A stretch of 64,000 nt of DNA from NCBI RefSeq assembly GCF_056712565.1, contig NZ_CM160072.1; one strand, written 5' to 3'. A program made the position numbers. The first letter of the stretch is position 1. Every line of letters starts with the position of its first letter. Below, one piece after another: positions 12,001-15,000 of this stretch.

Positions 12001-15000
12001 GGCTGTCGTCTCTCTTCTGCCATTGTCCTGTAACTTCCGGACTTCAGCCCGCTCCTTATTTTACTCACAATATTATCCCGGCCGGGAGGATTCATGGCAT
12101 TTAAACACTATGACGTGGTCAGGGCGGTATCGCCGTCAGACCTTGCGAAACGACTGACACAAAAACTGAAGGAGGGCTGGCAGCCGTTTGGTAGTCCGGT
12201 GGCCATAACCCCTTATACCCTGATGCAGGCGATTGCAGCAGAAGGTGATGTGGTGGTCAGTGGTGCAACTGAGCCGGATTGGTACTACGTCATCGTACTG
12301 GCCCGGCATTCCAGGCCATAAAAGACAGTCTGGCAGTGGGACTAAATGCACTGACGCTGATGGATATTACCAAAAATGTAACGTATGGCGTTGAGATAGA
12401 AAGTCTGGCGCTGGAGATAAATGCACCGGCATCATCATAAAAAGTGAGCCAGTCAAATGGAAGGTATCGTTAAACTCACCGGTAGTGTCAGTGGGTCGTC
12501 TGAGACGCTTGCATGAGTTATCAGAGCCATCAGTAGTTAACTGGTGGCTTTTTTATTGTTTTCAGCTTCCGGATAACGGGAGACGGGGTATGGACCAGAT
12601 GGAAAAAATCACAACAGGTGTGTCATACACCACGTCAGCGGTGGGAACGGGCTACTGGTTCCTGCAGTTGCTGGACAGGGTTTCCCCGTCTCAGTGGGCG
12701 GCAATAGGCGTGCTGGGGAGTCTGCTGTTTGGGCTGCTGACATATCTGACTAACCTGTATTTCAAAATCAGAGAGGACCGTCGTAAGGCGGCACGGGGAG
12801 AGTAATTCAATGACTCAAAACTATGAACTGATTGTGAAAGGGATCCGCAATTTTGAGAATAAAGTTACGGTAACTTTAGCATTACAGGACAAAGAACGCT
12901 TTGACGGTGAAATTTTTGACCTGGACATCTCGCTGGACCGTGTTGAAGGTGCTGCGCTGGAGTTTTATGAGGCAGCGGCCAGAAGGAGCATCAGACAGGT
13001 CTTCCTGGATGTCGCTGCCGGGTTATGTGAAGGGGATGAGCAGTCGCCGGAAAAGCGCCCCGTAATTTTAGAGGCGCAGAATGTATGGATAACCTACAAA
13101 GGAAAGCTACCGGGAAGGATTACTGGTTCCCTGAAGACTCCGCCGAAATGGTAGTTTTGCCAGCATAATTTTCTTCCAGCAATGCCGCCAGCCACTTGAA
13201 AGAATTTTGTTGTTCCTGGGACCATTTGGGGTTGCGTGATTCAAAATGAATGGATGCCAGCGTTGGCAGCATTTGCTCCCTGGGAATTGATAAGGCCAGA
13301 TGTGAAAATGCAACAGTGAGGGCATTTACATCATCCCGAAGCCTGGAAATGCAGTCGAGCAACTCCTGTAGAGAAATGGTGCTATTGTCCATAAATAATC
13401 CTCTTGATTGTCTTTACCTTTTCCCCGCCTGATTCAACAGGCCGGGACAGATAAACATATCCAGGGTTCAGAAACCGATAAATCCTGATAAATATCCATG
13501 AACGCAAAAATCAAATACGGCCTGTCAGCTGCAGTTCTGGCGCTGATTGGAGCAGGCGCATCAGCTCCTCAGATACTTGACCAGTTTCTGGATGAAAAAG
13601 AGGGTAACCACACTACGGCATACCGCGATGGTTCCGGCAACTGGACCATCTGTCGGGGGGGCCACGATGGTGGATGGAAAACCCGTTTTTCCCGGTATGA
13701 AACTGTCGAAGGAAAAATGCGACCAGGTCAACGCCATTGAGCGTGATAAGGCGCTGGCATGGGTGGAGAAAAACATCAAAGTGCCATTGAGCGAACCCCA
13801 GAAAGCGGGGATCGCGTCATTCTGTCCGTACAACATTGGTCCCGGTAAGTGTTTCCCGTCGACGTTTTATAAACGAATTAATGCAGGTGATCGCAGGGGA
13901 GCGTGTGAGGCGATTCGCTGGTGGATTAAGGACGGTGGCAGAGACTGCCGTATTCGTTCAAACAACTGCTACGGTCAGGTATCCCGTCGTGACCAGGAGA
14001 GCGCGCTGGCGTGCTGGGGTATCGACAGATAAGCAGAATATTTTGCTGAAAAATAAGGCATGGCCACGCGGGCGGATAACATGAAATCCTGCGAAGTGGC
14101 GAAACGTAAGTGAATAAAAGTAAAAACCCCGTTTGTTGGCACCAAGCGGGGTTTTGTGTTTCCTGACTCCGGAAAAGTCAAAGGAGAAAGTGTGTTTGAT
14201 TTTAGCAAACTGATTCGGGAGATTCGAGTGATGGCTGAAAAATTATCCACCTGGAAGTTCATTCTTATCTGGCTGGTGTTTGTGATTATGGCCTCTGGTT
14301 ATTTCATCGGTCAGATACGCTGGTGGTGAAATGAACCGCGTACTGTGCGTGGTCATCATTGCCCTGCTGGTGGCCTGTGGTGCGCTTAGTCTGGGGCTGA
14401 ATCATTACCGTGATAACGCCATTACCTACAAAGCCCAGCGCGACAAAAATGTCAGAGAACTGAAGCTGGCGAACGCGGCAATTACTGACATGCAGATGCG
14501 TCAGCGTGATGTTGCTGCGCTCGATGCAAAATACACGAAGGAGTTAGCTGATGCGAAAGCTGAAAATGATGCTCTGCGTGATGATGTTGCCGCTGGTCGT
14601 CGTCGGTTGCACATCAAAGCAGTCTGTCAGTCAGTGCGTGAAGCCACCACCGCCTCCGGCGTGGATAATGCAGCCTCCCCCCGACTGGCAGACACCGCTG
14701 AACGGGATTATTTCACCCTCAGAGCGCGACTGATAATAATGCAAAAACAACTTGAAGGGGCACAGCTATACATTCGAGAGCAATGCCTCAGATAAAAACC
14801 GGCCAAGGATAATCCGCTGAAGATTCGCCGGTGGCTAAAGTGTGCCAAGAGTTCAATTTACGCAATTACTCCTGTCGATGCTATGTACCGTCTTTGTGAA
14901 GTCAATGGATACCTGATTTATTTCTGTGCGCTGTATCGTCGCTGTACTCTTGCATTAATTATGACTGTAGCCTGACGGGGAACTCCTTCTGCACAAGTGT

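Follow-up and report, generated by a model that had tools for sequence, protein, structure and literature searches.

A stretch of 64,000 nucleotides from contig NZ_CM160072.1 (RefSeq assembly GCF_056712565.1), here called the window, contains a prophage in which two small convergent genes lie between the class II holin gene (S) and the endolysin gene (R). One of them, ydfR, runs with the late operon; its 3' end overlaps that of a minus-strand gene, which we call gene B. With moderate confidence we read the two genes as a copy of a mobile accessory cassette, transcribed convergently, that has fused with ydfR at the 3' end of the latter. Slots outside lysis cassettes, a recurring partner, a shared leader and changing cargo all point to a mobile cassette fused to ydfR and not to a lysis-specific device. 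An initial annotation had described both open reading frames (ORFs), of 114 and 90 amino acids (aa), their Shine-Dalgarno sites and the overlap of ~35 bp, and reading the sequence bore this out (Table 1). Its suggestion of an accessory module also gained support, as the pair is conserved, gene B is present or absent between relatives, and the layout recurs in distant relatives.

We found that gene B is a real protein-coding gene under purifying selection. Selection was measured on 39 distinct alleles of the S-to-R region from viral contigs, with gene B scored outside its overlap with ydfR. Variable sites in this part numbered 14/12/35 at codon positions 1/2/3, the ratio of non-synonymous to synonymous substitution rates (dN/dS) was 0.28 there, within a range of 0.28-0.33 for gene B, and the minus frame was intact in 36 of the 39 alleles. 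The dN/dS was 0.37-0.40 for ydfR, 0.065 for the holin and about 1.2-1.3 for four other frames. Both ORFs are conserved. The plus frame that shares third positions with gene B gave 0.23, as expected. This low value, the lack of a Pfam or NCBIfam match and the small size of the family could suit a chance ORF in a non-coding spacer, a reading to which we give almost no weight. The plus frame in question is not open across the region, homologues with 24-40% identity occur in other genera and contexts, and the AlphaFold model is a confident helical bundle (predicted local distance difference test score (pLDDT) 74; helices 8-17, 22-35, 38-52 and 59-77). A spurious ORF is rejected by the dN/dS and codon-position pattern.

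The initial annotation had recognised neither protein, and the homology and structure searches it proposed divided the two. Gene B belongs to phrog_2411 and matched nothing in Pfam, NCBIfam, PADLOC or PDB; fold searches returned family members or generic helical repeats only. One UniProt entry names a family member 'Ybl58', and a literature search found nothing on Ybl58 or on the convergent cassette. The protein has no membrane segment, its maximal 19-residue Kyte-Doolittle hydropathy being 0.83. The plus-strand product, in contrast, matched Pfam DUF1327 (PF07041; E-value 7.7e-44 over residues 1-112) and phrog_406, and is a 'YdfR family protein' in RefSeq, which annotates both ORFs in E. coli S88, where the DNA is identical. 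The ydfR start codon (ATG) is placed 4 nt past the holin stop with GGGGAGAG upstream, and the protein is likewise acidic, soluble and without a membrane segment (maximal hydropathy 0.69).

Comparison with YdfR of the K-12 prophage Qin (P76160) showed where the window protein departs from its family. Both are DUF1327 members in a slot between a class II holin and an endolysin (essQ-ydfR-rrrQ in Qin), and they share 85% identity over residues 1-72, after which they diverge completely. K-12 YdfR has 103 aa, another C-terminus and a stop that overlaps rrrQ, with no partner tail and no convergent gene, whereas the linker and tail of the window protein span 42 residues and are related to cassette partners that occur as separate ORFs. 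Its C-terminus reads ...KGKLPGRITGSLKTPPKW, with the motif RITGSLKTPP at 13116-13145, and conservation in the alignment of E. coli YdfR sequences (A4) is highest at this motif, whose columns are nearly invariant. The plus-strand ORF appears to be a fusion of a DUF1327 core with a B-type partner tail. Previous work on K-12 YdfR reported from two-hybrid and co-purification assays that it binds the catalytic N-terminal half of RNase E, that residues 1-72 suffice for this, and that RNA co-purifies with it, although few transcripts were altered on over-production (PMC13232886, 2026).

Relatives of gene B were found well beyond lysis cassettes. Profile searches returned 19 relatives among 1.84 billion representative proteins and 90 in a second search, from Escherichia, Salmonella, Atlantibacter, Yersinia, Citrobacter, Serratia, Sodalis and other Enterobacterales. 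Their phage slots include tail operons, the position 5' of the holin and the neighbourhood of terminase (Table 1). Each phage context that was examined has a small opposite-strand ORF, co-oriented with the neighbouring late genes, that converges on the B homologue. In most of these loci the two 3' ends share 7-47 bp, and in L153/L176 there is a stop-to-stop gap of 3 nt. The B stop codon, TAA, lies antisense to the I-T codons of RITGSL, and by position the same relation holds in Yersinia locus L099. The convergent overlapping layout is probably functional, since it recurs in distant relatives. The chromosomal homologues have no convergent partner in the loci examined. One of them, a 92-aa gene (L097 4001-4279, L098 1463-1741), stands in the synteny rne-pyrC-dinI-B-bssS-solA, and 92-aa homologues are named in many Serratia species; the dinI-bssS locus has neither partner nor conserved leader. 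About 2 kb from the Citrobacter cassette, the Hfq-binding small RNA isrI was matched above its gathering score (RF01392, 51.7 bits; L100 4929-5026, minus strand).

The convergent partners resemble each other and the end of the window YdfR. They share a coiled-coil head (MTLEQRVEILE...) and an ITGSLxxP-type tail, ending in RITGSLFAP, KITGSLRAP, RLTGDILIP or QIFGDLKKPP. Smith-Waterman shuffle z scores between partners were 12.5 (L099-L100), 9.9 (L094-L100), 6.9 and 5.2. The last 42 residues of the window YdfR scored 4.2-5.1 against three independent partners, and the long YdfR extension of the PhiR5_1 type scored 11.0 against the head of the L100 partner. The motif is kept through synonymous codons (ACT/ACG/ACC/ACA, TCC/TCG/TCT, CTG/TTA), indicating that selection acts on the peptide. 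The partner thus consists of a constant head, MSLDNKVELLNIEIKELRGIIAETEKAFANFQEDVNARFKAAQEQTA in tail-operon slots and DUF1327 with or without a coiled coil in the S-R slot, and a variable tail whose type tracks the cargo family in at least 11 cassettes, across slots and heads. From a constant head and a tail that changes with the cargo, we take the exchangeable unit to be the partner tail, the convergent cargo ORF and its 3' leader. The unit appears to be flanked by two conserved arms, namely the partner head on one side and the promoter with the 5' leader on the other.

The S-R slot itself presents five arrangements. K-12 Qin has DUF1327 only; phage 733R4 has DUF1327 and the tail, with no minus-strand gene; in the window, vB_EcoS-783R2 and Chlobot (PP925838), DUF1327 and the tail converge on gene B; in PhiR5_1 and Stx1 phages, a 211-aa YdfR converges on an unrelated 86-aa protein; and in Stx2 phage 86, a 268-aa YdfR is followed by an unrelated 104-aa minus-strand protein. 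An hhalign comparison of gene B with these 86-aa and 104-aa proteins was not significant. Window homology to 733R4, to PhiR5_1/Stx1 phages and to phage 86 breaks after the ...GSLKTPP codons (about 13145-13150) and resumes at about 13442-13454; between these points 733R4 has about 20 bp in place of the cargo, and the others carry different cargo. The GC content of the cargo segment is 0.455 versus 0.53-0.54 in the holin and endolysin genes. The segment is present in 1,124 of 5,426 complete E. coli genomes (21%), always with a YdfR-family gene annotated beside B. Only three GenBank phage records carry it. The region is matched by 370 GenBank phage records, with Stx phages numerous among them.

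The statement that S is directly followed by R in phage 21-type cassettes, from which the initial annotation started, is true of phage 21 itself. It does not hold for the many S21-type cassettes in E. coli prophages: ydfR normally fills this slot, in Qin and in many lambdoid phages. The gap of ~700 bp between S and R is accordingly no unusual insertion, and variable cargo makes up only about 13150-13441.

On the far side of the cargo, the arm upstream of gene B is also conserved. The E. coli leaders in the S-R slot start identically beside the R start, with ...ATCAGGAT, 22 nt and CCCTGGATATGTT, the latter containing a -10-like TATGTT (13459-13454). The same elements and spacing lie upstream of B homologues (L089, L094) and of unrelated cargo (L006, L002); in L089 and L094 the spacing takes the form ATCAGGRT-22 nt-TAnnnT. 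We infer a promoter function for this region. After TATGTT the window switches to its own hairpin, and its 58-nt leader folds at -19.0 kcal/mol (z -3.8 versus shuffles). Upstream of distant B genes a conserved element, GGAATGGCTGATTAAC, lies in a stem whose arms vary by locus and stay complementary, and a second covarying hairpin precedes this stem. Across seven leaders, 9 of 18 proposed pairs changed on both sides, and 91% of cells pair compared with 77% in shuffles.

A covariance model built from B leaders alone had a match immediately 5' of the gene for the unrelated 104-aa protein in Stx2 phage 86 (L006; 44 bits, E-value 8e-8) and, more weakly, upstream of the 86-aa gene of PhiR5_1. Scanning viral contigs with CCCTGGWTATGWT-N4-6-TTCA gave at least 120 loci, and among the matches listed, 65 were followed by an ORF of 40 codons or more. 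The products form at least six unrelated families, of 52-118 residues, plus singletons. The full leader model matched 36 of the 80 newly found loci searched, 44 in all with eight earlier loci. Among 27 distinct leaders, 11 of 12 pairs showed compensatory changes and 89% of cells were paired (shuffles 73%, slid controls 29-48%), in an alignment that was fitted to the model and so favours the structure. Related cassettes have in common an upstream region that is conserved and an RNA leader with two hairpins. Rfam gave no relevant leader match in the window region or six related loci, and a scan with the 14-mer GATGGCTGATTAAC returned mainly chance matches, with 5 of 120 real.

UCAGCC, invariant at the leader's 5' end, could pair with GGCUGA in the hairpin 2 loop (alignment A7, columns 20-25/72-77; L089 3927-3932/3975-3980), which would allow a pseudoknot or another fold. 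Since neither side ever varies, covariation says nothing for or against such pairing. The tail-operon copies also have a hairpin with a T-run in the late direction, between the upstream arm and the next tail gene (L089 about 3850-3875; L099 about 2300-2325), which would end non-antiterminated transcripts arriving through the partner gene.

How might such a cassette work? Gene B would be an autonomous unit, transcribed from the conserved upstream region against the late operon and hence presumably made in the lysogen. After induction, Q-dependent late transcription would read through ydfR and across gene B and its promoter, lowering B expression by collision and antisense pairing; from the geometry, antisense interference in the overlap is plausible. 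The same transcription would yield YdfR with its cognate tail, which would bind and neutralise B. The DUF1327 head probably retains the activity reported for K-12 YdfR, namely binding of the RNase E catalytic half and possibly of RNA. The whole would be a prophage effector with a late-expressed self-antagonist, as in the Tab/anti-Tab pair of phage JBD26.

Tab, whose 83 residues are encoded by a minus-strand gene within the late operon that has a promoter of its own, has been reported to block tail assembly, and the product of the plus-strand gene 30 (anti-Tab) to bind and inactivate it in lytic growth (PMC10884400). In the JBD26 record, gene 30 and tab (gene 31) converge inside the late operon with a 47-bp overlap. 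The window pair resembles this system in its soluble minus-strand protein (~83-90 residues in the two cases) without a known domain, in an overlapping plus-strand late partner (47 versus 35 bp) and in being dispensable as a cassette. It differs in location, as Tab lies between terminase genes whereas B lies between holin and endolysin, with relatives in tail operons or beside the holin. The window partner is also fused to DUF1327, and a structured leader and exchangeable cargo are undescribed for Tab. Tab/anti-Tab is the best precedent as a functional analogy, not by membership. The prophage hotspots of P2/P4-like phages (Rousset et al. 2022) likewise have conserved flanks and exchangeable cargo, and BstA-aba self-immunity is conceptually similar in that a prophage effector comes with an element for self-immunity. 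Here, however, the cargo consists of single ORFs of 50-120 residues with no match to known defence, and the flanks are, unlike those of the hotspots, a partner-gene head and an RNA leader rather than core phage genes.

Several observations weigh against a mobile effector/antagonist cassette. A sequence scan found no consensus sigma-70 promoter for gene B, and on the minus strand from the B stop to the holin there is no terminator-like site, only a weak 5-bp stem at 12631-12617. Hairpin 2 is missing from the window leader, which the leader covariance model does not pick up, and the one hairpin that the window leader has shows no covariation or compensatory changes among E. coli alleles. BLASTP of the window YdfR against the L089 partner finds nothing, and the tail similarity is short, so the relationship rests on shuffle tests, the shared motif and position; a hidden Markov model of five partners matched the window ORF only at E-value 0.14, and tblastn of a free partner against GenBank phages gave no match. 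Tail and cargo physically overlap, and their co-variation could be linkage alone. The ITGSL tail is highly conserved in ydfR genes without B or with other cargo (L005, L002, L006), and its role cannot depend on B alone. B and Tab have no sequence homology (B profile versus Tab in hhalign: probability 0.1, E-value 0.53). Finally, the chromosomal homologues, in Serratia-like genomes and Sodalis, allow a possible housekeeping-type role.

The main alternative is that gene B is an ordinary single-gene moron 3' of ydfR, with partner and tail functionally untied to it and their likeness due to boundary sequence used by recombination. We regard this as possible but rather unlikely. Gene B is present in some collinear phages and absent from others (Qin and 733R4 lack it), its cargo segment is swapped between two conserved arms, the ITGSL tail persists without it, and its chromosomal homologues do without a partner, all of which would suit a moron. 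Like the lambdoid morons (lambda bor and lom, HK97 gp15), it is an extra late-operon gene, patchy in relatives and lower in GC than its neighbours, and like bor it is oriented against late transcription. Unlike them, it has no recognisable sigma-70 promoter or terminator pair, and it has a cognate convergent partner and a leader common to unrelated cargo. Boundary sequence also accounts poorly for a partner tail kept at the amino-acid level through synonymous changes, for partners that are full-length ORFs with significant pairwise similarity, and for a tail type that follows the cargo type in different slots and heads. The initial annotation had also offered a toxin-type module. A toxin-antitoxin or abortive-infection pair, in which the convergent partner, or its antisense RNA, counteracts a toxic B or tail, would fit two small convergent overlapping genes in a mobile cassette with fast-diverging cargo; in JBD26, a single deletion of gene 30 could not be isolated and the double deletion was viable (PMC10884400). 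We consider such a pair improbable here, as no toxin or defence family in Pfam or NCBIfam matched either protein, PADLOC-DB gave no match to the window proteins or to the alternative cargo proteins up to E-value 1, B homologues stand alone in chromosomes, B has stayed intact in a prophage that is decaying, and cassettes of the 733R4 type have the tail but no B.

A lysis-timing regulator, which the initial annotation had also raised, would have the proteins or their antisense overlap tune holin and endolysin expression. The position between S and R suggests this, and, with no terminator found ahead of the weak stem at 12631-12617, transcription of B would continue antisense into ydfR, possibly as far as the holin; moreover, a genetic screen, as cited in PMC13232886, tied K-12 ydfR to envelope integrity. 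Lysis timing nevertheless seems distinctly unlikely. Cassettes of B and partner also occur in tail operons, 5' of the holin and near terminase, S21-type cassettes exist without B (K-12 Qin, 733R4), and both ORFs are intact beside an R pseudogene. Neither YdfR nor B has a transmembrane segment or signal sequence, unlike holins, antiholins and membrane lysis regulators. There is a similarly small chance of an RNA-decay module, in which YdfR would modulate RNase E in late growth and B or the structured leader would take part in control at the RNA level. This reading draws on one paper and on weak fold hits (model pLDDT 66); YdfR over-production altered few transcripts (PMC13232886), and B cassettes occur without any DUF1327 domain.

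Table 1. Features of the window around the ydfR-B pair, and slots of B homologues in other loci.
Feature	Position or locus	Strand	Details
Class II (S21-type) holin	12590..12805	+	71 aa; first lysis-cassette gene; TAA 12803-12805
ydfR	12810-13154	+	114 aa; isoelectric point (pI) 5.2; soluble; in late-operon direction
DUF1327 core	12810..13025	+	residues 1-72; predicted three strands and a helix
C-terminal linker and 'partner tail'	13026..13154	+	residues 73-114; not in K-12 YdfR
ydfR/B 3'-3' overlap	13120-13154	both	35 bp
Gene B	13120-13392	-	90 aa; acidic (pI 4.95); soluble; phrog_2411 (E-value 5e-55)
Variable cargo segment	13150..13441		BLAST breakpoints versus L005, L002, L006
Shine-Dalgarno site of B	13405-13399	-	AAGAGGA; 6 nt before ATG; read from sequence
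Leader hairpin	13423..13446	-	CCCGGCCUG-uugaau-CAGGCGGGG; presumed 5' leader of B; at hairpin 1 position
Conserved 5' arm of cassette, putative B promoter region	13454..13489	-	ATCAGGAT (13489-13482), 22 nt, then CCCTGGATATGTT (13466-13454)
SAR-type (signal-arrest-release) endolysin, R21-like	13498..14032	+	two ORF pieces; RefSeq 'lysozyme, frameshifted'
B homologue, phage slot	L089/L090, L096		between tail genes M and L, antisense to them
B homologue, phage slot	L099 (Yersinia)		between tail genes I and J
B homologue, phage slot	L100/L101		just 5' of holin
B homologue, phage slot	L094		near terminase
B homologues, chromosomal			between dinI and bssS; after AIDA-type autotransporter; in Sodalis

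The lysis cassette around the pair is defective, while ydfR and B remain intact. The endolysin frameshift is one extra G (G7) in the G-run at 13655-13661; in all 38 other distinct endolysin alleles the run is G6 and the frame stays open, giving a 177-aa protein. RefSeq likewise marks this prophage's large terminase subunit (about 16711-18638; L003 10212-12139) as 'frameshifted', a second sign of decay. The holin matches phrog_9876 (E-value 2e-40) and phrog_20, is named 'class II holin family protein' in RefSeq, and has a second in-frame ATG at codon 4 (12599). From holin to endolysin, the sequence has 100% identity with a prophage found in E. coli S88, APEC O1 and ATCC 11775, where the RefSeq order is class II holin, YdfR family protein, hypothetical protein (minus strand) and lysozyme (frameshifted).

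Upstream, three tRNA genes (10869-11118; by ARAGORN Met-CAT, which RefSeq calls Ile, Arg-TCG and Arg-TCT) are found after the Q antiterminator/methyltransferase region and before the holin, at the site of stx in Stx phages. The ~900 bp past them (11200-12090) hold short ORF fragments only, with one pseudogene remnant in RefSeq, and a DUF1737 gene just 5' of the holin (12094-12321) is annotated as truncated, its C-terminus missing, in the identical S88 sequence. In phage vB_EcoS-733R4 (L005 999-1334), an IraM-like anti-adaptor gene, an antisense host-modulating moron, occupies the minus strand just 5' of the holin. Strong terminator-like hairpins with T-runs lie on the plus strand at 12523-12551, ~40 nt before the holin start, and at 14123-14155, ~90 nt past the endolysin stop and before an Rz-type gene; late transcription would need antitermination to get past them. 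This Rz-like spanin gene (14331-14795), with an embedded +1-frame lipoprotein ORF (14551-14733), forms an Rz/Rz1 pair. Between the lysis genes and terminase, the minus strand carries DUF1398 (15103-15528) and YlcI/YnfO-family (15571-15804) genes, counterparts of K-12 Qin ydfO and ynfO and a further antisense-oriented accessory set in the late region.

As far as the literature search found, a convergent cassette with a structured leader is undescribed, although its YdfR half already has a name. We tentatively suggest, as a possibility that we hold with some doubt, that lambdoid and related prophages of Enterobacterales carry an undescribed family of exchangeable effector/antagonist cassettes. 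Each would combine a small, fast-diversifying protein made in the lysogen, a shared structured leader and a late partner with a variable tail that neutralises its cognate protein. Such cassettes would act as modular self-immunity switches of the Tab/anti-Tab type, available in many specificities, and the copy in this window would be joined to YdfR, the RNase E-binding protein. About a fifth of complete E. coli genomes have the B cargo, and many more have sister cassettes in which the cargo differs. If the suggestion is true, these cassettes would form a large reservoir of small prophage effectors, each accompanied by an antagonist that is built in and expressed late. The effectors could then serve in host modulation, exclusion or defence, and the conserved leader or partner head would offer a search handle for them. 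YdfR, the product of a y-gene only recently tied to RNase E, gains a testable context, and the 'extra genes' in the lysis cassettes of Stx and lambdoid phages would be exchangeable modules rather than lysis components.

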